Assembly (NCBI GenBank): GCA_951406725.2
Contig: OX597814.1
Location: 60,946,001 to 61,010,000, forward strand
Direction of reading: 5' to 3'
DNA length: 64,000 nucleotides
DNA from: Octopus vulgaris
Lineage: Eukaryota
The notes under the pieces were generated by a model, which saw only the letters and a program-made list of their open reading frames with translations, made no database searches and was not told the origin of the DNA. The position numbers and the translations under genes are program-made. Positions 15,031-52,202 of this stretch are shown here, piece by piece; the first letter of the stretch is position 1; every line of letters starts with the position of its first letter.

Positions 15031-16635
15031 ATAGAGCTGTGCAAGCCATGTACAGGGGTGCTTTCAGTAAGGTGAGGGTTGGCAATGAGTATAATGAAGA
15101 ATTCAGGGTACAAATAGGGGTTCACCAAGGATCAGTCCTCAGTCCCCTCTTGTTCATCATAATCCTCCAGGCAATAACAGAGCAGTTCAAGATAGGCTGC
15201 CCCTGGGAGCTCCTCTAGGCTGATGACTTTGCTCTTATAGCTGAATCACTACCAGAACTAGAGAAGTTTCAGGTGTGTAAGCAAGGTCTAGAATCAAAGG
15301 GCCTTAGAGTTAACCTAGCAAAAGCCAAAGTCTTAGTAAGTAGGAAAGCAAGCAAATCACAAATCCCTTCAGGTAGATGGCCTTGCTCAATCTGTAGAAA
15401 AGGCACAGGTAGAAACTTTATAAGATGTACTCACTGTAAGCTATGGACACATAAGAGGTGCAACAATATCAGAGGAAGGTTAACAGAGAAAATAGTTTTT
15501 GTGTGTGGAAGGTGCACAGGTATAATTAACACTAAAAATGTACAGAAGATAGATTCCATCACATGCCAACTAGAAGTAGTCGATAGCTTCCATTACCTAG
15601 GTGACCAGGTCAGTAGCAGGGGTGGATGCTCCAAGAACATTGCTGCTAGAATATGAATAGGCTGGGCAAAGCTCAGAGAGCTCCTACCTCTACTGGTAAC
15701 AAAGGGCCTCTCACTCAAAATGAAAGGCAGACTGTATGATATCTGTGTGCAAACTACCATGCTACACAGCAGTGAAACATGGGCTGTGAAAGCCAAGCAC
15801 ATGCACAGGCTTGTAAGAAATGAAGCTAGTATATTTCGCTGGATGTGTAATGTCAGTGTGCATGCACAGTAGAGTATAAGCATCCTGAAAGAAAAGGTGG
15901 GCATAAGAGGCATCAGATGTGGTGCACAAGGGAGATGACTGCACTGGTATGGTCATGTGATGTGTATGGACAAGGACAGCAGTGTGAAAAAGTGTCACAC
16001 TCTAATGGTGGGGGAGAACCTGTGGAAGAGGTAGACCCAAGAAGACATGGGACAAGGTGGTGGAGGACGATCTCCAAATGTTGGGCCTCACAGGCAATGA
16101 CAAGTGACCAAGGCCTTTGGCAATATGCCGTGCTTGCAAAGACCCATCAAGCCAAGTAAGATCGTGTTGCGTAACTGGCCTGTTAAAAGCACCCTTCAAA
16201 TGTTGGGCAATATGCTGTGCTTGTGAAGACCCATCAAGCGAAATGAAATCATAGTCATGGCCAGTGCCAGTGCTGTCTGACTGGCACCTGTGACAGTGGC
16301 ACATAAAAAGCACCATTCGAGTGTTGGGCCTCATGGAAACAGTAACAGGTGGGTGAGACCTTTGGCGATATACCATGCTGTGTAGACCTGTCAAAGCAAG
16401 TAAGACTATAGTTGTAGCCAATGTCAGTGTCAGGTCAATGGCACCTGTGGCAGTGGCATGTAAAAAACACCCACTACATTCTCAGAATGGTTGGTGTTAG
16501 GAAGGGCACCCAGCTGTTGAAACCTTTCCAAATCAGATTAGAACCTGATGCAGCTCTCCAGCTTACCAGTTTTCAGTCAAACCACCCAACCCATGCCAAC
16601 ATGGAAGACGGATGTTAAATGATGATGATGATGAT
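15031..16635 (+). mobile_element. 5'-truncated, decayed RTE LINE copy (3' half of RT, PHD insert, C-terminus and 3' UTR)
   Basis: It is homologous to 23228-24990. It retains GVHQGSVLSPLLF and the CSIC...CTHC...HKRC...CGRC finger. The YADD codons are mutated to TAG-GCT-GAT-GAC. It ends in (GAT)n. Confidence 0.9.
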
Positions 16636-23690: not shown

Positions 23691-23854
23691 GATACAAATT
23701 CCATTGGTGTTCATCTATTTTGATTTGGTTCGATTTGATTCGATATGATTCGATTCTCACTTGCCTCAACAGGTCTTCACAAGTGTCACAAGAAGGAAGG
23801 TATGCACAGGTGGACTGACTACGTCCCAGGTAGGGGCCACGGATTATGGCTTCA

Positions 23855-26800
23855 CTAGTCTTGCCGGGTCTTCTCACGCACAGCATACTTCCATAGGTCT
23901 CGGTCTCTAGTCATTTCCATGGTGAGACCTAACGTCCGAAGGTCGTGCTTCACCACCTCGTCCCAGGTTTTCCTGGGTCTACCTCTTCCACGGGTTCCCT
24001 CAACTGCTAGGGATTGGCACTTTCTCACACACCTATCTTCATCCATTCTCGCCACATGACCATACCAGCGCAATCGTCTCTCTTGCACACAACAACTGAT
24101 GCTTCTTAGGTACAACATTTCTCTCAAGGTACTAACGCTCTGTCGAGTAAGTACACTGACATTACACATCCATCGGACCATACTGGCTTCGTTCCTCACG
24201 AGCTTACGCATGTCCTCAGCAGTCACGGCCCATGTTTCACTGCCATGTAGCATAGCTGTTCGTACACATGCATCATACAGTCTGCCTTTTACTCTGAGCG
24301 AGAGGCCTTTAGTCACCAGCAGAGGTAAGAGCTCCCTAAACTTTGCCCAGGCTATTCTTATTCTAGCAGTTACACTTTCAGCGCACCCACCCCCACTACT
24401 GACTTGGTCACCTAGATAGCGGAAGCTATCAACTACTTCTAGTTTTTCCCCCGGAAAGTGACAGAAGTTGTTTTCTGCAGATTTTCGGAGGTCAATGCTC
24501 CAGAGCACCTGCCACATACAAAAACTATCTTCCCAGTTAGCCTACCTTTGACATTGCTGCACCTCTTATGTGTCCATAGCTTACACTGGGTACATCTTAT
24601 AGAGTTTCTACCTACACCTTTTCTACAGATCGAGCAGGGCCATCTTCCTGAGGATAGTTGTGGGTTTTCTACCTTTCTACTTATTAGTACTTTGGTTTTA
24701 GCTAGGTTGACTCTAAGGCCCCTCGATTCTAAATCCTCCTTCCACACCTGGAACTTCTCCTCCAGTTCTGATAGTGACTCAGCGATTAGAGCGAGGTCGT
24801 CAGCATAGAGGAGCTCCCAGGGGCAACCTGTCTTGAATTCCTCCGTTATTGCCTGGAGGACTATGATAAATAGGAGGGGGCTGAGTACTGAACCCTGGTG
24901 GACCCCAACCTCTACTTTGAATTCTTCTGTGTACATGTTGCCAACTCTAACCTTACTTACGGCATCTCTGTACATGGCTTGCACAGCCCTCACCAGCCAT
25001 TCATCTATCCCTAGTTTCCTCATTGACCACCAGATGAGGGATCGGGGGACCCTATCAAAGGCTTTCTCCATGTCAACGAAAGCCAGGTACAGGGGCTTAT
25101 CCTTGGCTAGGTATTTCTCCTGCAGCTGCCTTACTAGGAATATAGCATCAGTGGTGCTTTTCCCTGGGACAAACCCAAACTGCATCTCATCTAAACTAAC
25201 TCTCTCTCTAATTAGTTGGGCTATGACCCTCTCCGTAACCTTCATTACCTGATCCAACAGCTTGATACCTCTGTAATTATTTGTATCCAGGGCATCACCT
25301 TTGCCTTTGTAGCAGTTGATTAGTATGCTGCTACACCAGTCATTGGGTATGACTCCTTCGTGTATCACCTGGTTGACTATACGGGTGACTAGGTTATAGC
25401 CGACACTGCCAGATATTTTGAGCATCTCTGCAGTAATTCCTGATGGGCCTGGGGCTTTCCCTGTCTTCATGCTTCTAATTGCCTTAGCTACCACGGAACT
25501 ATCAACTCGGATAGCTGGTCCCTCTGTTGGGTCAACATTTGGCAGACTCTCTTTATCCCATTCATTTTCTTTATTCAGCAAACTTTCATAGTGGCATCTC
25601 CAAACCTCTCTCTTTGCATCCTCATTTAGCGCAAGTGAACCATCATCCATGCGAACACACTTCTCTCCTACCACATCACGATTCTCTCTCACACACTGTC
25701 TTGCAACACGAAATACCTCAAGTGTTTCATCCTCACGGCTCAGAACATTGGCAAATTTTTTCTTATCCGCTTCCCCTCTGGCTAAATAAACCTGTCTCCT
25801 AGCTTCCCTTTTGGCTGTCTGATACAATTCCCTGCTACCACCGTTCTTCCAGTCCTTCCAAGCCTGTCTCTTTTGTCTAATAGCCCCGTCAACCACCGTG
25901 TTCCACCACCATGTAACTCTGGGTCGAGATGGTACTTTGCTCCATCCACAGATCTGGTCAGTGGCTGTCAGCAGATTGTCCCGTAGGAATCTCCAGTTGT
26001 CTTCCACATTAAGTGAAGCTATATCCCCTTCTATTTCGTCAGAGGCTTCGAGTAGTATGTCTCTAAATCTCTGTCCATTTGCAGGATCTTTAAGCTTCCA
26101 GACCCTTCTCCTCCAAGCTGGTCTTCTTCTGGGCAACCATTTAGCTCTGATCCTGAAGTCGCTAACTACTAATCTATGTTGGGGAGTACATTCTTCGCCT
26201 GGGAAGGTTTTGGCATTTATAATCAGCCCTCTTTCCCTTTTTCTGGCAAGGATGTAGTCAATCTGGCTGGTGTGTCTGCCAGAACGGTAGGTGACTAGGT
26301 GAGAGGTGGGTTTCCTGAAGTGGGTATTGCAGACCATAAGGTCATTTGCATCGCAGAACTCCAGCAGCCTGGTTCCCTCCTCATTTCGAGAGCCAAAACC
26401 GTGGCCTCCATGGATGCCATGGAAGCCCCTGACATGTCGTCCAACATGTCCATTGAAATCACCTGCCACGAAGAGAAGGTCACTGTCATTTGTCAATGAG
26501 GTAGTCCGCAATAGGGTGTCATAGAATTGGTCTTTTTGTCCTTCCGGTAGCCCTGGTTGAGGGGTATATGCCGAGATGATGGTAGCTGTCCTATGGTGAA
26601 GAACTAATCTAATTTTAATTACTCTGTCACTTACTCTGACTACCTCGATTACCTTACCTATCCATTTCTCCGCAAGAAGTATACCCACGCCCCCGACTCC
26701 GTCAATGTTCCCTGCCCAGAAAATCTTGTACCTGTGTTCCTTGCCCGTGAGGAGCCTAGCAGAACCTCCTCTCCACCTTACTTCCTGGATACAGCATACA

Positions 26801-26973
26801 TCCACACGTCTCCGTTCAAGCAGCTCTACAATCTCTCCAGACCTACCTTTCAATGTGCCAACGTTGAGCGTGCCAACTCTGAGGGTTTGGGAGGTGTGGG
26901 CATCAGAGACCCTGGGACGAGGGACAGCAGTGTCATGTACCTGAAAAGAAAGCTTGCATTTGGCAGATTTCAT
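23855..26973 (-). CDS. RTE LINE ORF: AP endonuclease + reverse transcriptase + PHD-finger insert, with one frameshift near 24450
   Basis: APE motifs: GTLNVGTL, IQEVRW, AGDFNGHVG, IDYIL, QHRLV. RT motifs: KAPGPSG, QFGFVPGKST, FVDMEKAFD, GVHQGSVLSP, LYADD, FRYLG. It has the RTE-type C-terminal RGRGRPRKTW. The 844-aa ORF continues into the downstream ORF after a shift in a G/A run. Confidence 0.93.
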
Positions 26974-27122
26974 ATGGAAACTCTAGACTACAACCTGCAT
27001 ACTTTTCACAATTTTGCGCTATATGTTCAGATAAGCCCTACATAGGTGCTAGTGGGGGAGGGGGTAGTTTCCGGTATTTGGGTAGAAACTTCCGGTATTG
27101 GGGGTGGGAGGGTGGGCGACAA

Positions 27123-27665
27123 AATCGAAGCAACTAGTTTGAATACTATATTTGAGGGGGAAAAATAATTAATTAGATAAATGACTGAATGAAAGCCAGA
27201 GAGAGAATGAAAATAGATAAATAATAAAAAATACGGTAGAGAATGGAAATAGATAAATAATGAAAAAAAAAAAAAAAATACGGTAAGAGACGAGGGGGCA
27301 TATTTCGGAGGAGAATGGGATAAACATCGAAGAATGGCACTGAAGGAAAATAAACTTTAAAAATGCAATGCATGAAGTCGCCATGTTTAGAGAATAGAGG
27401 AACGAAGGGAGAACAGATCAAGCTATCCAAACAAAACGCTTAAAAATATGAAAAGAGCAGGATGAGATTGACTTAGCTGGCCATTTTTGGAAGTCTGTGT
27501 TTTCTCTGAAGGTGTAGCGAGTGAATAGGGATCAGATACGATCGCTCGCTGGCTTTTATAAGGGTATTAGGGAGGGGGACGGAAACACATTGGGAGGGGG
27601 ACGGAAACACGAGAGAGAAGAAAGAGAGAAGAGAGAGAGAGAGAAACAATTAAGGAGGGACGGAA

Positions 27666-27695
<30 letters not shown>
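27123..27695 (-). repeat. Tandem ~573-bp monomer, copy 1 (uninterrupted, empty Tx1 target at 27514-27530)
   Basis: The unit starting aatcgaagcaactagtttgaatac recurs at 27696 and 38801. It contains (GA)n, repeated gacggaaac motifs and TATAAAAG on the minus strand. Confidence 0.9.
27554..27560 (-). promoter_or_regulatory. TATA box of the monomer (second copy at 38739-38745)
   Basis: It is a consensus TATAAAAG with a CT-rich upstream region and a pyrimidine-rich, Inr-like CCCTATTCACT starting 30 nt downstream. It is conserved in both monomers. Confidence 0.6.
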
Positions 27696-27696
<1 letters not shown>

Positions 27697-28144
27697 ATCG
27701 AAGCAACTAGTTTGAATACTATATTTGAGGGGGAAAAATAATTAATTAGATAAATGACTGAATGAAAGCCAGAGAGAGAATGAAAATAGATAAATAATAA
27801 AAAATACGGTAGAGAATGGAAATAGATAAATAATGAAAAAAATACGGTAGAGAATGAAAATAGATAAATAATGAAAAAAAAAAAAAAAAAATACGGTAAG
27901 AGACGAGGGGGCATATTTTCGGAGGAGAATGGGATAAACATCGAAGAATGGCACTGAAGGAAAATAAACTTTAAAAATGCAATGCATGAAGTCGCCATGT
28001 TTAGAGAATAGAGGAACGAAGGGAGAACAGATCAAGCTATCCAAACAAAACGCTTAAAAATATGAAAAGAGCAGGATGAGATTGACTTAGCTGGCCATTT
28101 TTGGAAGTCTGTGTTTTCTCTGAAGGTGTAGCGAGTGAATAGGG
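27696..28144 (-). repeat. Monomer copy 2, downstream part (interrupted by the Tx1 elements, resumes at 38699)
   Basis: It is nearly identical to 27123-27530, with one extra internal ~38-bp subrepeat, and ends at the target GTAGCGAGTGAATAGGG (28128-28144). Confidence 0.9.
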
Positions 28145-28351
28145 TATTTCTTTATTATGATTATAAAAATCGATTACACAGAAGGACAAATACAGGACAT
28201 ATATACAAAAAAAACATTTAAGAGATTCGATTAAAAATTTTCATTTACATTGGGATTATTCATTATAACATAAATGTCCTTTACATAACCCGTATAACAA
28301 ACATCAGTACATGAACTTATAATCTCACTGGAGTTTTTACACCCCGGCAAT

Positions 28352-31300
28352 TTATGAGGCCCTGCAGCTTTTATTTCCTCTCCTTCCTCCATGGTCAAGC
28401 TGGGTTTCTGACACCCACCTTTTTTCCACTTCCTTCCATCTTTTCTCATACACACCCCGCGGTAAGATCCTCTTTTCCAGCCCCATTTTGCTCTTCAGAT
28501 GATATCTGAAGTAAGTGAGCAAGCCGGGGCCGGAGACAAAGGATCCTATCGCGGCTCCTTCCATTCTCGTTCTCCACATACATTCTTTTACTACTGCAAC
28601 CGTGCAGTGGAAACATGCCTCACCTTCCTTCGAGAGTCCAGTTGGCGGTATCATCTTAATCATAGACTCAGCCGACAGCTGTACTCGTCCCAGATGCGAT
28701 AACACGTGTTCTGCGTAACTTATCAAGTCGGACAACTTCCGACAGTGAACAAAAGCGTGCTGGACGGTTTCATCGTCCAACTCGCACCTTGGACACGTCG
28801 GTGGCACTGAAACTCCGTGCCGCGATAACTTCTCGCGAACAGGTAAAGCATTCCTATAGCACTGCCAGGCCAGGGATCTTTGGAAATTATCCAAATACCC
28901 CGACCTGAAAGTTTTTTTAAACAGGTTGGTAAGCTGGTCTTCGTCAAACCCCAGAGCCCCTCCTAGGACGTCGTCGTTTTTTAACTCTACCAGCTTTCTA
29001 TAAAATACCGAGGTGGTATTTCCGCAGCCGGCCTTGCCCGCCTTGTGGATCAGCGTGAGTGCCTGTCGGCACTCCTTTTGCCATGGAGTCAGTTTCCATC
29101 TTTTGATGTAACCGGGTTTAAAATTCACTAAGGAGGCCGGTCTCGGGAAAAATCCCCCTGCCAGCGGACTCCACACCTTATCACCCTCCAGGTGGTGCCA
29201 GAGATGCCTTAGCCTCAACGCATGTCTGCGCATCATCAACCAAGGCATTCCTAACCCACCCTTTAACGGTTCCTGGCAGCAAACGGAGCGCCTCACAAGT
29301 GGCCTTCCTCCTTTCCACAAAAAGCGGAAAAGGATTCGCTCCAACTTGTTAAGCCATGAATCGGGGCAGGGGACAACGGTCAGGTGGTAGGTGATTACAG
29401 ATGCAATGAACATCTGCACCACCTCCGCCTTTCCTTTCAAGGACAGAAACCTTCCGGACCAGGTCCGTACTATGGCTTCCACCTTGCTTGTCACCTCACT
29501 CCAGTTCTTCTCCGTTTGGGAGTCTGGCCCAAACCAAACTCCCAGCAACTTAACAGGGCCATCCGTCCAGTGTCCCACGACACTGGACGATATCGACTTG
29601 CTCCTCCAGGTGCCGAGGCGCAAGCCAACCGATTTGTCCTTGTTAACCTTTGCTCCTGCCACCGCCTCGTATCCTCTGATAGCCTCCTCTACACAAGGTA
29701 GTTGGGCCTCTTTGGACACGATGAGGGTGACGTCATCCGCATAAGCAGTAACCGTCCTCCCACCTCCGATTTCATCCGAGTTACTCCCCAGCCTCTCCAA
29801 CCTTCGCAGCAATGGCTCAAGAGCCAATACGTACAAAAGTGGTGACAAGGGGCACCCCTGACGCACTGAACACTCGATCGAAAACGGTTCCGTTAGGTAA
29901 CCGTTTATCTGGACGGTGGACTTGATGCCGCTATACATAGCGGAGATCCACCCGCGAAATTCAGGGCCCAGCCCAGCCGCTTCGAGGACCGTCGCCAGGT
30001 ACCCATGGTCTACCCTATCGAAGGCTTTACTTTGGTCTAAATGGACCATTACCCCGCCTTTGCCGGCTAATTTACCCACCCTATCTAAGGTGTAGCGTAT
30101 AAGGTGAAGGTTGTCCTGGATCGACCTGCCTGGAATTGCACATGTCTGTGCTCTCCCTACAAGTTTCTCCACGACAACCGTCAACCTTTTTGCCAACACC
30201 TTGGCCAAAATCTTTAACTCTACATTAAGTAGAGTTATGGGCCTGTAGTTACTGATGTTATCCCCCTTGCTCGGGTCTTTCTGGATTAGCGTCACCACTC
30301 CCCGGCTTACAGAACTGGGAATTCTCCCATTCTGCTGCCAGTTCGTGTAGACGCCCGCCAGTATTTCCCCGAACAAGTCCGGCATACTTTGGTAAAACTC
30401 GTAGGGCAGACCATCCAACCCCGGCGACTTCTCCCCGGCGCATCCGGCCAGTATCTCCTTTATCTCCGCGGGAGTGATCGCTCCTTCACAGCACTCCACC
30501 TCACGCCCCGCGGGCCGCGGTCCGCCGGCTAGGAAGTCCTTTAAGGCTCTCCCCCGATCCAGCGGACCACCACCCCCGAACACGCGGGCGAAATGCTGGT
30601 GAAGAAACTTTTGCATCTCCTCCTGTCCATAGATCTTTTGTCCCTGTTCGTCAGTCAAAGATTTGATTGAGGCTCTGTTGCCTCTCTGACTCTCCACACG
30701 ACGGGCCCATCCGGCCACGTTAATACCTTCTCGTTTCCCAGCGCGCAGCTTAGCTCTGACTCTGCAACCTTCGTGTTTGGAGTTAAGGTGACGGTACAAT
30801 ACCGTCCTTGCCGCCAACACTCCGGATGCAGAGCCAGCTTCCATTGCCTTGTCTAGATTCTTAACTAAATCGCCCTCTAGACTAGCCCTATCTATCCTTA
30901 GCTGATTGCTAAATCTAACGGACTCTAAACGAATGGCTCTTTTGAGGGCGTGCCACCATCTATTGTTAATGATGGTGCCTCACAATGCCCTCTGAACTAA
31001 CACCTTAATCCGGGTACGGAAGTCTTCACAATTCAAAATAGCCTTGTTCAGCTTCCAGTACCCGGGTCCCTGTCTATGACACTTGTCTAATTGCATCTCA
31101 CACGTCACAAATTTGTGATCCGAGTAAGGTACAATATGAAATTGTGGACAACTAAACGTATCCTTATCTCTTTTCTTAATAATTATCCTATCTAGATACG
31201 ATCTGTGTGAGCCGTCGTTGTTACTCCACGTCCACTGTGGAACGCTCGGCTCATCCAGTCGGTAACGGTCCACTAGATCAAAGCTCTCTAGTAGACCCTT

Positions 31301-31784
31301 GAGGCTAGGGTTCCCCTTCTTATTGGTTGAGCCAACATTGTCGATGTGCGCTTCAAGGACAGTGTTAAAGTCCCCTACTAGGATTACTGTTTTCGACGTC
31401 GCTAAAAAGGGGCTCCAGGTTCCGAAAAAGACCAGTGTGTCTACCCTCGTTCGGGGCGTAGACAGCTACCAACCTGAAGGACTGTTTACTTACGTGAGTC
31501 ACATCCAGGACAACCAGCCTGCCTTCTGGGTCCAGAAAGACAGTACTTACCTGCAAGTCCAAGCTCTTCCTGATGAAGACTGCCACGCCTCTGCCTCCTC
31601 CTCGGCTAGGAGAAATAAATTTCTCGAAACCATTTAGAAGAGGCAAGAACGCTTGGGTCTCGCTCATCTTGGACTCGGTTGCAATAGCAATATCTACACC
31701 ATGTGTCGTGAGGTCGTTCAGGAAACAAATTTGTTTCCGTTTCGACCCCATTCCACGTACATTTATACAACCCAGCTTAGCCAT
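28352..31784 (-). pseudogene. Tx1 ORF2 copy A (APE endonuclease, RT, C-terminal CCHC), interrupted by a +1 frameshift near 31410 and a TGA at 30980
   Basis: APE motifs: GCINVRG, ATES, VYAPN, GDFN, YLDRI, SDH. RT motifs: GYWKLN, KSPGLDGLP, LDQSKAFDRVDH, VRQGCPLSPLLY, AYADD. Zinc motif: CPRC-x8-H-x4-C. Confidence 0.9.
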
Positions 31785-31812
31785 TGTAGGTTAGAGAGAA
31801 AAATAAATGTAC

Positions 31813-33231
31813 TTACGGTTGGGAAAGGGAGCATGACAGTTTAAATCTGCCTGCTTCCCCTTCTTCCGCTGCTGCAGGGCTCTTGACCGGCGTTGCCACT
31901 GGGCTCTGGGTGGGTGTGGTTGCCGGGGTTATTATCAGTTTGCCCTCCATTACCTCTTTGGTTACGTCTCTTATCAGTCGGCTCCTCAGATGCTCCTGAA
32001 GAACCTCCTCTCTCCACTCGTCCTCCCCCACCTTCGCGAAGCGAGCGGTCGCCTTCACGTCTGTGGCTCTACTAAACAATGCAAATCTTGAGAATTTGCA
32101 ACAATTGTACACTCTTTCGTTGTTCTCGTCGAAAGCTATGATCCTCTCGTTCTTCTGTAAACACTTTTTTATGTCTTGTTTTATGGGGAGGGGCTTGGCA
32201 AACTGTTTTCCAATGAAAACAGTGCCATGGGGGTAGGGTTGGGGGATTTGCTTGGTGTGTGTGTCTGCTGTGTTTGCTGTTTTTTTCTTTGTTTGGGGAG
32301 GGGAGTCCTGGGTATTATCCTTTTTTCTTTTATGAGTGACTTGTGTGTAGTCCATTGGTTCTGTATGGTCCGTTTTTGTTTCCGTATTCGTCTTTTTGTT
32401 GTCTTTTCCTGTTTTCTCCCCTTCAGTGTTGGGGACACTTTGGGGAGGCGCTTCTTCTGTTCTCTTCTTTTTTATACAATTTGATCGGACGTGACCCTTC
32501 TCTCCACACTTGAAGCATCTGGGTCTACGTCCCTCTACCGAAACTCTCATGGACGTACCGTCCTCATTGAAGATTCTATCTGGCAGGTTTTCAAGGATTT
32601 TGTTCTCCGCCTGCACGAGGAGTTCTAGGGTCTGACCCTTCCACCGCACCACCTCTTTCCTTCTCATCTGCAGTATCGATATTTCTCGTTCAATGTTGTG
32701 CAGGACCGCCGCTGCTACCCACATGATGTCGTACCCTCTGGGTATGTCTTCTACCAGTAACTTCGCTGTACACTTCCCCATGTACGAGGGTAGCAGCATG
32801 ATGTCGTCGTTTTTTAGGGTCAACGACGACACCTCTCTCGCTACCTCGGCTGTGTCGAAATGTGCCTCGACTGTAGCACTGTGTGCACCTCTAACGACAT
32901 GACGAATTTTGTCCCACACCGGGGACAGGCACTTTTCTACCATTTCATTCTTTACATCCATTATCTTCTTTTCTTTAAAGCTGTATACCTTGTAGATAAC
33001 TATTCTTTCTTTAATTTCTTGTACCTTTGCCTGCGGCGGTACAAGCCTTATCTCGCCTCCTTCCACTTTTACTAGGTTCCTGAATTCATACAATTGTTCG
33101 ATTTTAAACTCGACATCCATCATGGCGCCGCCCACCGCGGCCGAGAATGACTGTTTGGGTACTTCCTTTTCCATATTTTCACTTTTTCCCATCACGGGAA
33201 AATCCTTCTTCGACGTCAAGTCGAAATCCAT
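31813..33231 (-). CDS. Tx1 ORF1 copy A (gag-like nucleic-acid-binding protein, ~472 aa from the first ATG)
   Basis: The ORF is intact from MDFDLTSKK and contains the zinc knuckle CFKCGEKGHVRSNC and a basic, low-complexity C-terminal half. Confidence 0.88.
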   Translation of the reverse strand: MDFDLTSKKDFPVMGKSENMEKEVPKQSFSAAVGGAMMDVEFKIEQLYEFRNLVKVEGGEIRLVPPQAKVQEIKERIVIYKVYSFKEKKIMDVKNEMVEKCLSPVWDKIRHVVRGAHSATVEAHFDTAEVAREVSSLTLKNDDIMLLPSYMGKCTAKLLVEDIPRGYDIMWVAAAVLHNIEREISILQMRRKEVVRWKGQTLELLVQAENKILENLPDRIFNEDGTSMRVSVEGRRPRCFKCGEKGHVRSNCIKKKRTEEAPPQSVPNTEGEKTGKDNKKTNTETKTDHTEPMDYTQVTHKRKKDNTQDSPPQTKKKTANTADTHTKQIPQPYPHGTVFIGKQFAKPLPIKQDIKKCLQKNERIIAFDENNERVYNCCKFSRFALFSRATDVKATARFAKVGEDEWREEVLQEHLRSRLIRDVTKEVMEGKLIITPATTPTQSPVATPVKSPAAAEEGEAGRFKLSCSLSQP

Positions 33232-33516
33232 TACCTCGAAGGTAATAAAAACGCAGGTAATACAAAATTTTCTGCCCCGTAGGGCGAAAATTACCGTTAT
33301 ACAACGGGCACTGTTCAAAACAGTTAGCACAAACAATAATAGTACAAATCCGAACTCTCTTAAATGAAGGCAGCAATTTTCTCACAACGCAGATGAACAG
33401 TAACTCGAGAACAGTAGCGAGTGAATAGGGTATTTCTTTATTATGATTATAAAAATCGATTACACAGAAGGACAAATACAGGACATATATACAAAAAAAA
33501 CATTTAAGAGATTCGA

Positions 33517-36500
33517 TTAAAAATTTTCATTTACATTGGGATTATTCATTATAACATAAATGTCCTTTACATAACCCGTATAACAAACATCAGTACATGA
33601 ACTTATAATCTCACTGGAGTTTTTACACCCCGGCAATTTATGAGGCCCTGCAGCTTTTATTTCCTCTCCTTCCTCCATGGTCAAGCTGGGTTTCTGACAC
33701 CCACCTTTTTTTCCACTTCCTTCCATCTTTTTCTCATACACACCCCGCGGTAAGATCCTCTTTTCCAGCCCCATTTTGCTCTTCAGATGATATCTGAAGT
33801 AAGTGAGCAAGCCGGGGCCGGAGACAAAGGATCCTATCGCGGCTCCTTCCATTCTCGTTCTCCACATACATTCTTTTACTACTGCAACCGTGCAGTGGAA
33901 ACATGCCTCACCTTCCTTCGAGAGTCCAGTTGGCGGTATCATCTTACTCATAGACTCAGCCGACAGCTGTACTCGTCCCAGATGCGATAACACGTGTTCT
34001 GCGTAACTTATCAAGTCGGACAACTTCCGACAGTGAACAAAAGCGTGCTGGACGGTTTCATCGTCCAACTCGCACCTTGGACACGTCGGTGGCACTGAAA
34101 CTCCGTGCCGCGATAACTTCTCGCGAACAGGTAAAGCATTCCTATAGCACTGCCAGGCCAGGGATCTTTGGAAATTATCCAAATACCCCGACCTGAAAGT
34201 TTTTTTAAACAGGTTGGCAAGCTGGTCTTCGTCAAACCCCAGAGCCCCTCCTAGGACGTCGTCGTTTTTTAACTCTACCAGCTTTCTATAAAATACCGAG
34301 GTGGTATTTCCGCAGCCGGCCTTGCCCGCCTTGTGGATCAGCGTGAGTGCCTGTCGGCACTCCTTTTGCCATGGAGTCAGTTTCCATCTTTTGATGTAAC
34401 CGGGTTTAAAATTCACTAAGGAGGCCGGTCTCGGGAAAAATCCCCCTGCCAGCGGACTCCACACCTTATCACCCTCCAGGTGGTGCCAGAGATGCCTTAG
34501 CCTCAACGCATGTCTGCGCATCATCAACCAAGGCATTCCTAACCCACCCTTTAACGGTTCCTGGCAGCAAACGGAGCGCCTCACAAGTGGCCTTCCTCCT
34601 TTCCACAAAAAGCGGAAAAGGATTCGCTCCAACTTGTTAAGCCATGAATCGGGGCAGGGGACAACGGTCAGGTGGTAGGTGATTACAGATGCAATGAACA
34701 TCTGCACCACCTCCGCCTTTCCTTTCAAGGACAGAAACCTTCCGGACCAGGTCCGTACTATGGCTTCCACCTTGCTTGTCACCTCACTCCAGTTCTTCTC
34801 CGTTTGGGAGTCTGGCCCAAACCAAACTCCCAGCAACTTAACAGGGCCATCCGTCCAGTGTCCCACGACACTGGACGATATCGACTTGCTCCTCCAGGTG
34901 CCGAGGCACAAGCCAACCGATTTGTCCTTGTTAACCTTTGCTCCTGCCACCGCCTCGTATCCTCTGATAGCCTCCTCTACACAAGGTAGTTGGGCCTCTT
35001 TGGACACGATGAGGGTGACGTCATCCGCATAAGCAGTAACCGTCCTCCCACCTCCGATTTCATCCGAGTTACTCCCCAGCCTCTCCAACCTTCGCAGCAA
35101 TGGCTCAAGAGCCAATACGTACAAAAGTGGTGACAAGGGGCACCCCTGACGCACTGAACACTCGATCGAAAACGGTTCCGTTAGGTAACCATTTATCTGG
35201 ACGGTGGACTTGATGCCGCTATACATAGCGGAGATCCACCCGCGAAATTCAGGGCCCAGCCCAGCCGCTTCGAGGACCGTCGCCAGGTACCCATGGTCTA
35301 CCCTATCGAAGGCTTTACTTTGGTCTAAATGGACCATTACCCCGCCTTTGCCGGCTAATTTACCCACCCTATCTAAGGTGTAGCGTATAAGGTGAAGGTT
35401 GTCCTGGATCGACCTGCCTGGAATTGCACATGTCTGTGCTCTCCCTACAAGTTTCTCCACGACAACCGTCAACCTTTTTGCCAACACCTTGGCCAAAATC
35501 TTTAACTCTACATTAAGTAGAGTTATGGGCCAGTAGTTACTGATGTTATCCCCCTTGCTCGGGTCTTTCTGGATTAGCGTCACCACTCCCCGGCTTACAG
35601 AACTGGGAATTCTCCCATTCTGCTGCCAGTTCGTGTAGACGCCCGCCAGTATTCCCCCGAACAAGTCCGGCATACTTTGGTAAAACTCGTAGGGCAGACC
35701 ATCCAACCCCGGCGACTTCTCCCCGGCGCATCCGGCCAGTATCTCCTTTATCTCCGCGGGAGTGATCGCTCCTTCACAGCACTCCACCTCACGCCCCGCG
35801 AGCCGCGGTCCGCCGGCTAGGAAGTCCTTTAAGGCTCTCCCCCAATCCAGCGGACCACCACCCCCGAACACGCGGGCGAAATGCTGGTGAAGAAACTTTT
35901 GCATCTCCTCCTGTCCATAGATCTTTTGTCCCTGTTCGTCAGTCAAAGATTTGATTGAGGCTCTGTTGCCTCTCTGACTCTCCACACGACGGGCCCATCC
36001 GGCCACGTTAATACCTTCTCGTTTCCCAGCGCGCAGCTTAGCTCTGACTCTGCAACCTTCGTGTTTGGAGTTAAGGTGACGGTACAATACCGTCCTTGCC
36101 GCCAACACTCCGGATGCAGAGCCAGCTTCCATTGCCTCGTCTAGATTCTTAACTAAATCGCCCTCTAGACTAGCCCTATCTATCCTTAGCTGATTGCTAA
36201 ATCTAACGGACTCTAAACGAATGGCTCTTTTGAGGGCGTGCCACCATCTATTGTTAATGATGGTGCCACACAATGCCCTCTGAACTAACACCTTAATCCG
36301 GGTACGGAAGTCTTCACAATTCAAAATAGCCTTGTTCAGCTTCCAGTACCCGGGTCCCTGTCTATGACACTTGTCTAATTGCATCTCACACGTCACAAAT
36401 TTGTGATCCGAGTAAGGTACAATATGAAATTGTGGACAACTAAACGTATCCTTATCTCTTTTCTTAATAAATATCCTATCTAGATACGATCTGTGTGAGC

Positions 36501-37070
36501 CGTCGTTGTTACTCCACGTCCACTGTGGAACGCTCGGCTCATCCAGTCGGTAACGGTCCACTAGATCAAAGCTCTCTAGTAGACCCTTGAGGCTAGGGTT
36601 CCCCTTCCTATTGGTTGAGCCAACATTGTCGATGTGCGCTTCAAGGACAGTGTTAAAGTCCCCTACTAGGATTACTGTTTTCGACGTCGCTAAAAAGGGC
36701 TCCAGGTTCCGAAAAAACCCGTCTGTCTACCCTCGTTCGGGGCGTAGACAGCTACCAACCTGAAGGACTGTTTACTTACGTGAGTCACATCCAGGACAAC
36801 CAGCCTGCCTTCTGGGTCCAGAAAGACAGTACTTACCTGCAAGTCCAAGCTCTTCCTGATGAAGACTGCCACGCCTCTGCCTCCTCCTCGGCTAGGAGAA
36901 ATAAATTTCTCGAAACCATTTAGAAGAGGCGAGAACGCTTGGGTCTCGCTCATCTTGGACTCGGTTGCAATAGCAATATCTACACCATGTGTCGTGAGGT
37001 CGTTCAGGAAACAAATTTGTTTCCGTTTCGACCCCATTCCACGTACATTTATACAACCCAGCTTAGCCAT
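33517..37070 (-). CDS. Tx1 ORF2 copy B (APE-RT-CCHC), with homopolymer frameshifts near 36715 and near the C-terminus (~33710-33730)
   Basis: It comprises a 126-aa N-terminal piece and a 1014-aa open frame with the same motifs as copy A, and it lacks the nonsense codon. Confidence 0.88.
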
Positions 37071-37098
37071 TGTAGGTTAGAGAGAAAAATAAATGTAC

Positions 37099-38516
37099 TT
37101 ACGGTTGGGAAAGGGAGCATGACAGTTTAAATCTGCCTGCTTCCCCTTCTTCCGCTGCTGCAGGGCTCTTGACCGGCGTTGCCACTGGGCTCTGGGTGGG
37201 TGTGGTTGCCGGGGTTATTATCAGTTTGCCCTCCATTACCTCTTTGGTTACGTCTCTTATCAGTCGGCTCCTCAGATGCTCCTGAAGAACCTCCTCTCTC
37301 CACTCGTCCTCCCCCACCTTCGCGAAGCGAGCGGTCGCCTTCACGTCTGTGGCTCTACTAAACAATGCAAATCTTGAGAATTTGCAACAATTGTACACTC
37401 TTTCGTTGTTCTCGTCGAAAGCTATGATCCTCTCGTTCTTCTGTAAACACTTTTTTATGTCTTGTTTTATGGGGAGGGGCTTGGCAAACTGTTTTCCAAT
37501 GAAAACAGTGCCATGGGGGTAGGGTTGGGGGATTTGCTTGGTGTGTGTGTCTGCTGTGTTTGCTGTTTTTTTCTTTGTTTGGGGAGGGGAGTTCTGGGTA
37601 TTATCCTTTTTTCTTTTATGAGTGACTTGTGTGTAGTCCATTGGTTCTGTATGGTCCGTTTTTGTTTCCGTATTCGTCTTTTTGTTGTCTTTTCCTGTTT
37701 TCTCCCCTTCAGTGTTGGGGACACTTTGGGGAGGCGCTTCTTCTGTTCTCTTCTTTTTATACAATTTGATCGGACGTGACCCTTCTCTCCACACTTGAAG
37801 CATCTGGGTCTACGTCCCTCTACCGAAACTCTCATGGACGTACCGTCCTCATTGAAGATTCTATCTGGCAGGTTTTCAAGGATTTTGTTCTCCGCCTGCA
37901 CGAGGAGTTCTAGGGTCTGACCCTTCCACCGCACCACCTCTTTCCTTCTCATCTGCAGTATCGATATTTCTCGTTCAATGTTGTGCAGGACCGCCGCTGC
38001 TACCCACATGATGTCGTACCCTCTGGGTATGTCTTCTACCAGTAACTTCGCTGTACGCTTCCCCATGTACGAGGGTAGCAGCATGATGTCGTCGTTTTTT
38101 AGGGTCAACGACGACACCTCTCTCGCTACCTCGGCTGTGTCGAAATGTGCCTCGACTGTAGCACAGCGTGCACCTCTAACGACATGACGAATTTTGTCCC
38201 ACACCGGGGACAGGCACTTTTCTACCATTTCATTCTTTACATCCATTATCTTCTTTTCTTTAAAGCTGTATACCTTGTAGATAACTATTCTTTCTTTAAT
38301 TTCTTGTACCTTTGCCTGCGGCGGTACAAGCCTTATCTCGCCTCCTTCCACTTTTACTAGGTTCCTGAATTCATACAATTGTTCGATTTTAAACTCGACA
38401 TCCATCATGGCGCCGCCCACCGCGGCCGAGAATGACTGTTTGGGTACTTCCTTTTCCATATTTTCACTTTTTCCCATCACGGGAAAATCCTTCTTCGACG
38501 TCAAGTCGAAATCCAT
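37099..38516 (-). CDS. Tx1 ORF1 copy B, with a 1-bp homopolymer frameshift near 37755
   Basis: It encodes essentially the copy A ORF1 protein, split just after the CCHC knuckle where an A-run is one base shorter. Confidence 0.85.
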
Positions 38517-38698
38517 TACCTCGAAGGTAATAAAAACGCAGGTAATACAAAATTTTCTGCCCCGTAGGGCGAAAATTACCGTTATACAACGGGCACTGTT
38601 CAAAACAGTTAGCACAAACAATAATAGTACAAATCCGAACTCTCTTAAATGAAGGCAGCAATTTTCTCACAACGCAGATGAACAGTAACTCGAGAACA

Positions 38699-38770
38699 GT
38701 AGCGAGTGAATAGGGATCAGATACGATCGCTCGCTGGCTTTTATAAGGGAATTAGGGAGGGAGACGGAAA

Positions 38771-38801
<31 letters not shown>

Positions 38802-38860
38802 ATCGAAGCAACTAGTTTGAATACTATATTTGAGGGGGAAAAATAATTAATTAGATAATT
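38699..38860 (-). repeat. Upstream part of monomer 2 (target, TATA, (CT)n) plus ~60 bp of a truncated third monomer
   Basis: It matches 27514-27695 and then 27123-27180, and ends against a (TA)n tract. Confidence 0.88.
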
Positions 38861-46457: not shown

Positions 46458-47075
46458 GCTCCTAATCACTTGGTTCACTTTTGTGCATGAGCAACATGAG
46501 AAGTATCTGTACATGTTGAGTAGAATAAATATCATATGTTATTTTTGTTTGATGCACCAGTTTATCAGCAATTTTCTCTCAGATGTCTATATCTTTCATC
46601 GATATATCGTTCATTGATATGCACATGTTGCTAGTGACACGATATGAACTAGCAACCGTTTTCTCTTAATGTCTGGCTTTCTACTTAGCTAGCTGAAACC
46701 TCTACCAATGTCTATAATGAAGTGTGATTGACTCACCCACCTCTATCCTCCTCCATACTCTCTCTTGCTCCTAATCACTTGGTTCACTTTTGTGCATGAG
46801 CAACATGAGAAGTATCTGTACATGTTGAGTAGAATAAATATCATATGTTATTTTTGTTTGATGCACCAGTTTATCAGCAATTTTCTCTCAGATGTCTATA
46901 TCTTTCATCGATATATCGTTCATTGATATGCACATGTTGCTAGTGACACGATATGAACTAGCAACCGTTTTCTCTTAATGTCTGGCTTTCTACTTAGCTA
47001 GCTGAAACCTCTACCAATGTCTATAATGAAGTGTGATTGACTCACCCACCTCTATCCTCCTCCATACTCTCTCTT
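46458..47075. repeat. Tandem duplication of a 309-bp unique-looking unit
   Basis: 46458-46766 is repeated at 46767-47075 with no differences I could see. Confidence 0.92.
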
Positions 47076-47199
47076 GAAGTGAAGTTTATTGTCAATTGAG
47101 AATAGCAGTTTGAGGAATTCCTGCATTGATGCAGTGAGTCGCTAAGTCAGATGATTTGCAACAGTTGTTTGGGAAGAAATCTTTGGGGTATTTAACCAG

Positions 47200-50944: not shown

Positions 50945-52202
50945 TCAGGTCGTTAAGAATGAAATATCCAATTTTCAACTGAAAGTTTATTTTACTTTAT
51001 CTCAACAAAAAGCAATGCAATTAATCAAATTATCAACACAATTTTGCCATTTTATCGGTAGCTTATTTATGCTGGCAGAGAAGAACTCTGGCGGGCAAGA
51101 GGTGATGAAATCACGAAAGGCTGTTTTTGCATCTTCTTCAGATTTGAAGTCTTTTCTTGCAAGAAGTTGTCTCATGCCTGCAAACCATGATAGTCAGTTA
51201 GTGCAAGGTCTGATGAATATGGTGGATGACTGAGTACTTCCAACTTCAGTTCCTGTAACTTGAGTAGTGTTCTTTGTGCAACATGTGGTCAAGCATTGTC
51301 TTGCAAGAGAACTGGCCTGTCTCTATTGACCAATCGCAGTTGTTTAATTGCAAGTTCACTCATTAGTTCATCCAATTGGTTAATGTATACATCCGCTGTA
51401 ATTGACTTACCAGGTCTCATGGAGCTGTAGTGGATGACACTAGCGCTGGACCACCAAACAGACATCATTAGCTTTTATTGGTGAATATTCTTTTTTGGAT
51501 TGTGTTTTGGCACTTCATCTCTATCCAATCACTGTGCAGAACGCTTGCTGTTGTTGAAAAGAATCCATTTTGCATCACATGTAACAACATGATGCAAAAA
51601 TGGTTCGCTTTTATCCCATAACAGCAAAGAACAGCAAGTTTCAAGATGACATGTCATTTGATGCTCATTCAGTTCTTGTGGTACCCACTTGTCCAGCTTC
51701 TTTATCCTGCTGATTTGTTTCAGATGATCCAATACAGTTGGAATTGAAACATCAAACCTTGCTGCTAACTCACGCATAGTTTGAGATGTATCCGCTTCCA
51801 ATACAGTTTCCAGCCCATCATTATCCACCTTGGTCTCTGGTCTACCATGGGGCTGATTTTCAAGAGTAAAGTTACCAGACAGGAACTTCTCAAACCATCG
51901 ACATACAGTGCACTTATTCGCCAAACACCTCATTGATGTTTCGAGCTGTCTGGGATGCATTGGTTCCATGACAGAACTCATATTCATAAACAACACAAAT
52001 TTTTTATCTATCCATGGGTTCACAAAAATTGACTTACAAGAGAAAACTCAATATAATCAGACACCATGGATTGCATTTCAAAATGTGAAGATGTAATTCT
52101 TCAGTGTTGTAAAACAAAGAATTGTCAGGGTAAAACACTAGAGTTAATGACTGTCAAACTTGGTGCATAAAAAAATCGGACATTTCATTCTTAATGACCT
52201 GA
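50945..52202 (-). mobile_element. Full-length decayed mariner transposon (~1.26 kb)
   Basis: The ~30-bp TIRs tcaggtcgttaagaatgaaatatccaatttt / aaaatcggacatttcattcttaatgacctga are flanked by TA. Transposase remnants include TVCRWFEKF..G, GRP, WVPQEL and VTCDAKWI, with stops and frameshifts. Confidence 0.92.

Follow-up and report, generated by a model that had tools for sequence, protein, structure and literature searches.

The 64,000-nt stretch of Octopus vulgaris DNA analysed here, hereafter the window, contains two 5.27-kb APE-RT elements arranged head-to-tail, with a 17-bp target site duplication (TSD) at all three of their junctions. Exact copies of this 17-mer start at four positions (27514, 28128, 33414 and 38699), and a search of the 64,000 nt for further copies with up to three mismatches found none. 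The copies at 28128, 33414 and 38699 confirm the tandem arrangement reported in a preliminary description of the locus, which was also right to read the 17-mer as the TSD. The two elements (28145-33413 and 33431-38698, both on the minus strand) are 99.5% identical over 5.3 kb; each consists of an ORF1 with a CCHC knuckle and an ORF2 with RT and zf-RVT domains, and three of these four ORFs carry frameshifts. The features of the locus are as follows:

23720..27122, minus strand: body of the host RTE-like LINE, the same body as in other fetched loci
within 23720..27122, minus strand: unique part of the 5′UTR of the host RTE-like LINE
24439-26973, minus strand: APE-RT-PHD ORF of the host RTE-like LINE, 844 aa
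23855-24517, minus strand: frameshifted C-terminal piece of the host RTE-like LINE
near 23722-23755, minus strand: short-repeat tail of the host RTE-like LINE
27123..27695, minus strand: RTE 5′UTR monomer 1, unoccupied
27554..27560, minus strand: monomer 1 TATA box (TATAAAA), its first T lying 30 nt upstream of the unoccupied target
27514..27530, minus strand: empty target site in monomer 1, where RTE 5′ ends cluster; its first base or two may be the transcription start
27696..28144, minus strand: RTE monomer 2 downstream of the insertion, including the TSD copy 28128-28144
28145..33413, minus strand: Tx1-like LINE, promoter-distal copy
31813-33231, minus strand: ORF1 of the promoter-distal copy, 472 aa, CCHC
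31365-31784 and 28352-30844, minus strand: ORF2 of the promoter-distal copy, in pieces
33414..33430, minus strand: TSD copy between the two Tx1-like elements
33431..38698, minus strand: Tx1-like LINE, promoter-proximal copy
37467-38516 and 37099-37803, minus strand: ORF1 of the promoter-proximal copy, in pieces
36690-37070 and 33517-36384, minus strand: ORF2 of the promoter-proximal copy, in pieces
38699..38715, minus strand: TSD copy at the 5′ junction, putatively the first transcribed bases
38739..38745, minus strand: TATA box (TATAAAA), first T exactly 30 nt upstream of the TSD; candidate promoter of both Tx1-like copies
38716..38860, minus strand: remainder of monomer 2 (38716-38801) and truncated monomer 3 (38802-38860), forming the 5′ end of the RTE copy

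The preliminary description, whose interval begins at 27123, had called the target a tandem repeat and put the monomer at about 573 bp once the elements are removed. The restored monomer is in fact about 535 bp long (27696-28144 plus 38716-38801) and 91% like its neighbour, and the array is no free-standing repeat but continues past 27123 into an RTE-like LINE. Copies of the monomer are spread over numerous chromosomes. They form arrays, the largest with 16 TATA-bearing units, and each array has one variably truncated end and one fixed end that runs into the same unique sequence. In six of the six other loci that were followed, this sequence is the APE-RT body found in the window at 23720-27122 (98-99% identity), and 34 array-to-body junctions matched an exact pattern. 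Since the arrays have a fixed end leading into the RTE body, we conclude from this layout that the monomers are the 5′UTR of the RTE-like LINE; a free satellite and a Helitron were considered for the monomer and rejected because the arrays run into that body. The host element has a single APE-RT ORF and a short-repeat tail, as in the RTE clade, to which we presume it belongs from its architecture and motifs. Tandem TATA-type 5′UTR monomers (window 27123-27695; G000:C5:94289047-94297147) occur in at least four RTE subfamilies with diverged monomers. The mouse L1 5′UTR likewise consists of tandem promoter monomers, a comparable means of retaining a promoter upstream; those of the octopus element differ in being of the TATA type and in belonging to an RTE-like element. 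The accessible part of PMC9115989 describes RTE-clade LINEs active in octopus, without mention of Tx1, and gives RTE-2_OV an ORF of 1109 aa, compared with 1012-1040 aa for the unbroken ORFs of the sister RTE subfamilies found here. An older RTE-like fragment lies in opposite orientation at 15033-16157 of the window and is 77% identical to 23854-24990.

Each RTE monomer carries TATAAAA 30 nt upstream of the 17-mer; the earlier identification of the target as a TATA promoter was correct. The 5′ ends of the RTE arrays were mapped in 42 stretches, 36 of which were used after removal of one assembly gap, one microsatellite call, one array continuing upstream, two Tx1-junction calls and one no-call. 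Seven of these 36 ends fall within +4..+15 of the start of the 17-mer (P = 1.3e-4; the expectation for +1..+17 is 1.15), and the interval -42..0 is empty. If a transcript began at the 17-mer and were copied nearly in full, its insertions would be expected to cluster in this way, suggesting that transcription of the host element starts there.

The inserted family has an unbroken ORF2 of 1129 aa, with its APE domain, in ten stretches elsewhere. Pfam assigns this protein an N-terminal APE domain (Exo_endo_phos), RT (RVT_1) and a C-terminal zinc-binding domain (zf-RVT), and its best PDB match is human L1 ORF2p (E 2e-64, residues 8-866), with R2 at 4e-24. The family also shows L1-group traits, namely a separate ORF1 (472 aa, zf-CCHC), TSDs, variable 5′ truncation and a fixed 3′ end, which reads AATAAAGAAAT(A). 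A Tx1 label is plausible; no Tx1-named relative was found among the database matches to the family's protein, and the nearest named relatives were unannotated proteins, an octopod one at 64% and those of sea cucumber, coral, lancelet and fish at 37-42% in the RT region. Thirteen recently active L1-Tx1 families have been reported in Octopus vulgaris (PMC13282606); the accessible text uses neither the word promoter nor the word nested, and the repeat library and supplements behind it may hold the families described here.

To define where the family inserts, we gathered its 3′ ends by a DNA search (40 of 220 candidates scored), a 5′-end search and three exact patterns, which makes the resulting set a lower bound. 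Tandem copies were scored once per locus, and the near-identical segmental copies L259, L260 and L271 were left out, as was L255, which has no visible element. Because the 3′ end of C8:109.75 coincides with a gap, the flank of C3:97.87 stood in for it; for C9:59.20 the inner junction was used. At least 66 loci were obtained, 54 of them with a TSD, mostly of 15-19 bp. RTE monomers of four related subfamilies, with RTE ORFs downstream, account for 12/66 loci, and a single site in a 1.2-kb Helitron-like repeat, whose termini were read from the sequence, for another 12/66. A family of C2H2 zinc-finger gene promoters was hit at seven loci with a TSD and three without, and zinc-finger arrays lie downstream in five. 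The remaining targets are singletons, some of them LTR-like as read from their sequence; for classes b, h, i and k, the 10 kb downstream held no informative ORF. The family falls outside the sequence-specific Tx1 group, the 17-mer being at the 3′ junction of only 4/66 loci and the biggest target classes, at 12/66 each, being just under the 20% cut-off given in the accessible part of PMC4494074. As for the known Tx1 RNA-gene targets (U2, U5, tRNA and 5S), the window gave no Rfam match of any kind at the gathering threshold, and matches within 26900-28300 were at chance level only (E >= 4); a small-RNA gene as the target was rejected for lack of Rfam support.

Several loci have features of their own. 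The zinc-finger cluster at G000:C27:22.8-23.4 Mb (L263-L269, L165/L189) contains at least eight paralogous promoters with an element at the putative start site, some insertions being stacked with another Tx1-like family. At L299 (near 447-490; G000:C3:128.218 Mb), the insertion lies at what is likely a host first exon, with CCAAT boxes and a TATA variant upstream and a 37-nt exon-like stretch followed by a consensus splice donor. At L153 (G000:C1:114.657 Mb), a truncated copy of 80 bp is accompanied by a duplication that, at about 78 bp, is unusually long, and at least five Tx1-like elements of different families lie head-to-tail over about 40 kb at G000:C7:13.48-13.52 Mb (L191, L086, L171). 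The Helitron-like repeat (L156, L188, L193-L222), of which 305 or more copies are empty, is a landing site common to two Tx1-like families and includes a fragment that looks like a Tx1 5′UTR/ORF1 start.

The hypothesis of a TATA box at -30 was written down before the 5′ flanks of the other loci were fetched. When homologous targets were collapsed, 27 non-homologous classes with a TSD remained, and in seven of them (RTE, E, H, I, K, b and i) a TATAWAW motif starts exactly at -30 from the TSD, with that of class i lying within a (TA)n run. By comparison, every other distance from 7 to 119 yields at most one class. The background is 0.5% per position, or 0.2-1.0% when matched for the first bases of the target, and even at 1% the signal at -30 has P = 7e-9 (8e-7 after correction for 110 positions; 2e-7 without the RTE class). 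The stricter motif TATAWAA is found in 5/27 classes against a background of 0.06%. BLAST detected no similarity around the site among the seven classes, and all insertions with a -30 box are in the sense orientation. Widening the interval to -31..-28 gives 8/27 classes, and allowing one mismatch 12/27 classes and 30/54 sites; the zinc-finger promoters have a TATA variant at -28 to -33, the range over which the spacing also wobbles in RTE-B and RTE-C. Class H has, further upstream, what we take to be CCAAT boxes and E2F-like sites. The signal includes the 5′-truncated copies C9:89.34 and C1:66.30 (classes K and i), which cannot be sources; selection for active donors therefore fails to explain the position. 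In canonical TATA promoters the first T lies at -30 or -31 from the start, and the TSD would accordingly lie at or next to +1. At the zinc-finger locus L268, contigs from four runs, whose RNA status is a guess, span the element together with the sequence immediately downstream of the TSD and are sparse upstream (275-822); as contigs cannot show starts, they were given no weight.

This fixed distance to a promoter element across unrelated targets, a trait of the Ty3 and TRE5 type, is found at part of the loci only. In 15/27 classes no TATA-like box is present at -31..-28, even with one mismatch allowed. The Helitron-like site has an exact TATA at -30 in only 1/12 loci, and 9/11 of the Helitron-like loci compared belong to a variant without the TATA-like segment, a variant that makes up 4/30 of the empty sites examined out of 305. 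Amplification of the element as a passenger inside this repeat was rejected, the hosts being 3% apart and 10/11 elements 0-0.5% apart, with uncorrelated distances. Likewise, none of six TSD-bearing copies with a CAC prefix that share one 3′ signature has a TATA box, and the truncated CAC-prefix copies look like short-match insertions. At C14:37.12 and C27:23.38 the site shifts along with the TATA box, but a rule based on the target prefix fits both shifts equally, so these loci do not separate the two models. Taken together, the TATA-less classes, the Helitron-like site and the short-match copies lead us to conclude that the family uses both position and short homology.

The source of this homology is suggested by the ends of the elements. 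At C7:13.50, a copy that is not in an RTE monomer has the complete 17-mer, first base included, at its 5′ end; RTE-C bases are found at the element 5′ end at the inner junction of C7:109.68, the first bases of class E are carried at three unrelated sites, and the copy at C2:182.80 has a pyrimidine-start 5′ extension with an extra G. For one carried-over 5′ sequence, no donor site was found in the assembly. These first bases, carried over from other targets, indicate that the donor transcripts started at the TSD. At the other end, 3′-end subfamilies each favor their own first 3-5 target bases (CC, TCT, CAC, TAC or TGG/TAG), with signatures assigned by flank lookup, in which loci with identical flanks can be confused, and at six or more 3′ junctions the first base follows the subfamily prefix rather than the target. 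The prefixes differ even though the endonucleases of six unbroken copies across the prefix subfamilies are 94-98% identical, suggesting RNA-DNA pairing, in which read-through RNA would pair with the DNA at the nick.

A sister Tx1-like family, with 61% ORF2 identity, behaves differently. Among the 40 of its 225 3′-end matches that were examined, 25 have a candidate TSD and 11 of these are stacked on other elements; none of the 14 unstacked loci has an exact TATA at -31..-28. This family follows the target sequence, with TATAAAG at -33 or -36, and the -30 rule is not shown to be clade-wide. Short sister-family copies of 1.78 kb, likely non-autonomous, form head-to-tail arrays of at least 16 units (G000:C7:100088860-100115618 and C1:118744535-118751697).

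The case for start-site targeting is statistical and drawn from sequence comparison. We consider it probable that the family inserts in the sense orientation, with its TSD 30 nt after the TATA box of many unrelated promoters, at what is likely the Pol II start and likely via the transcription-initiation complex. The element would have no promoter of its own and would be transcribed from a captured one, from the first base or two of the TSD. Transcription would pass the element's AATAAA into the 3′ TSD, so that the RNA ends in a few bases of the last target. A TBP-containing complex, or the DNA melted by it, would then guide ORF2p to the start site, where ORF2p would nick the template strand. 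Reverse transcription would be primed by pairing of the read-through bases with 3-5 nt at the nick, and the TSD would result from another nick, about 17 nt downstream. With the start site regenerated upstream of each insertion, every later copy would land ahead of the earlier ones and head-to-tail arrays would grow, and the same pairing could account for TATA-independent homing into copies of old targets and for short-match insertions elsewhere. In the window, the victim would be the monomer promoter of the RTE-like LINE. Our judgement tilts slightly towards the fuller picture, in which the Pol II initiation complex serves an animal LINE as a ruler for reaching +1 of TATA promoters with base-pair precision. 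Such a LINE would have lost its own promoter, would parasitise transposon promoters and those of octopus C2H2 zinc-finger genes and would retarget via read-through RNA rather than via its endonuclease, making it the animal equivalent of Ty3, target-primed and acting at Pol II promoters.

RNA-guided homing alone, in which the read-through 3′ end pairs with any match and start-site founders are amplified since only promoter-driven copies are transcribed, is unlikely, even though it accommodates the subfamily-specific prefixes of 3-5 nt, the 12 independent insertions at the mostly TATA-less Helitron-like site, the short-match insertions within other elements and a sister family that tracks sequence instead of TATA distance. 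Matches of 3-5 nt are only a few hundred bases apart. Even so, an exact TATA stands at -30 in the unrelated classes E, H, I, K and b, where the prefix-matched background does not exceed 1%, and one member of the -30 set, a truncated copy of 200 bp, could not have served as a source. Still less probable is recognition by the APE of initiator-like or TCT-like DNA in a nucleosome-free promoter, with no ruler provided by the initiation complex. The first base of the TSD is C or T in 23/27 classes and the second A or C in 26/27, a composition that resembles initiator motifs. Open promoter DNA spans 100-200 bp, however, and would not yield one sharp peak at -30, and the prefixes vary by subfamily while the endonuclease barely does.

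The proposal of the preliminary description, that the endonuclease recognises the 17-mer within a tandem repeat of TATA promoters, has become very improbable. It agrees with the known occupation of 5/56 TATA-bearing monomers (found by exact pattern) and with the 12/66 loci in monomers of the four related RTE subfamilies, but the flank table largely refutes it: the 17-mer, expected at the 3′ end of most copies, is at the 3′ junction of only 4/66 loci, and elements 99% identical to the window copies occupy other sequences. Nor is a sequence specificity encoded by the APE supported, given that endonucleases 94-98% identical pair with different target prefixes. The same description had held that unrelated flanks at other copies would point to one random insertion later duplicated by recombination between the TSDs; such flanks were found, but the duplication is scarcely credible despite the adjacency and 99.5% identity of the window copies, which differ by 19 substitutions from each other and by 18-19 each from a copy on another chromosome, while the same site is occupied on other chromosomes and some arrays mix subfamilies. 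Because the two copies are no closer to each other than to that third copy, the window pair most plausibly reflects two separate insertions into one regenerated site, in line with the re-insertion proposed earlier. Overall, the earlier interpretation is partly supported.

The accessible text of PMC4494074 lists U2, U5, 5S, satellites, microsatellites, DNA transposons and LTR retrotransposons as Tx1 targets, with Xenopus Tx1L in Tx1D piggyBac, Keno in U2, Kibi and Koshi in microsatellites, Tx1-Mar in Mariner-N4, Tx1-8_Crp and Tx1-4_AMi in LTR retrotransposons and Tx1-9_AMi in Harbinger. It discusses a dependence on flanking transcription for SINEU and R2, and neither a LINE promoter nor a Pol II start site was found among its Tx1 targets. 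The octopus family is like these target-specific elements in being a two-ORF APE-RT LINE with a fixed 3′ end, TSDs, tandem insertion and insertion into transposons; unlike them, each of which has one sequence or repeat family as its target, it enters many unrelated sequences at a fixed TATA distance. According to the accessible part of PMC5911963, Ty3 integrates at the start sites of Pol III genes, where a TBP-containing factor sets the position. Insertion at a transcription start site, putative in octopus, is a shared feature, but Ty3 is an LTR element that uses an integrase and reaches Pol III genes via TFIIIB, whereas the octopus family is a target-primed LINE found in sense orientation at Pol II-type TATA promoters. 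That source also describes Dictyostelium TRE5-A, TRE3 and NLTR-A (L1 clade), which target tRNA or 5S genes; the TRE5-A ORF1p binds TBP, Brf1 and Bdp1 (TFIIIB contacts), and TRE5 inserts 44-54 bp upstream, in opposite orientation and with its own promoter. These are, like the octopus family, APE-RT non-LTR elements whose insertion is position-specific rather than sequence-specific; unlike TRE5, the octopus family would sit at +1, with a promoter apparently borrowed. A preference for Pol II promoters is shared with Tf1 and Tf2, from which the octopus family differs by keeping a single-base TATA distance. Tf1 and Tf2 are LTR elements spread over promoter regions and are not known to keep a single-base distance to TATA. 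Their preference in S. pombe is given in the accessible part of PMC4600332.

In the accessible literature searched, base-precise position targeting is described for Pol III genes (Ty3, TRE5) and Tx1 targeting as sequence-based. Searches of the open full-text literature found no LINE described as inserting at Pol II start sites, nor one that enters the promoter monomers of a second LINE. Our verdict is that the octopus family would give Tx1-like LINEs a mode of targeting that is new, close to that of Ty3 but directed at Pol II-type promoters. If true, the targeting of Pol II start sites by a LINE would widen the range of targeting modes and offer a direct test of target-primed insertion steered by a host complex together with RNA-DNA pairing. 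Each insertion would then flag a start site active in the germline, in a genome where few promoters have been mapped. The family could also serve as a transposon-on-transposon brake and as a mutagen of the expanded octopus zinc-finger clusters, since its insertions part RTE and zinc-finger promoters from the genes behind them.

Two further features were seen elsewhere in the window. A 152-aa ORF on the minus strand (51529-51987) resembles what we take, from its motifs, to be a mariner transposase fragment, and 46458-47076 holds a perfect 309-bp tandem duplication in two copies, which may be recent or an assembly artefact.
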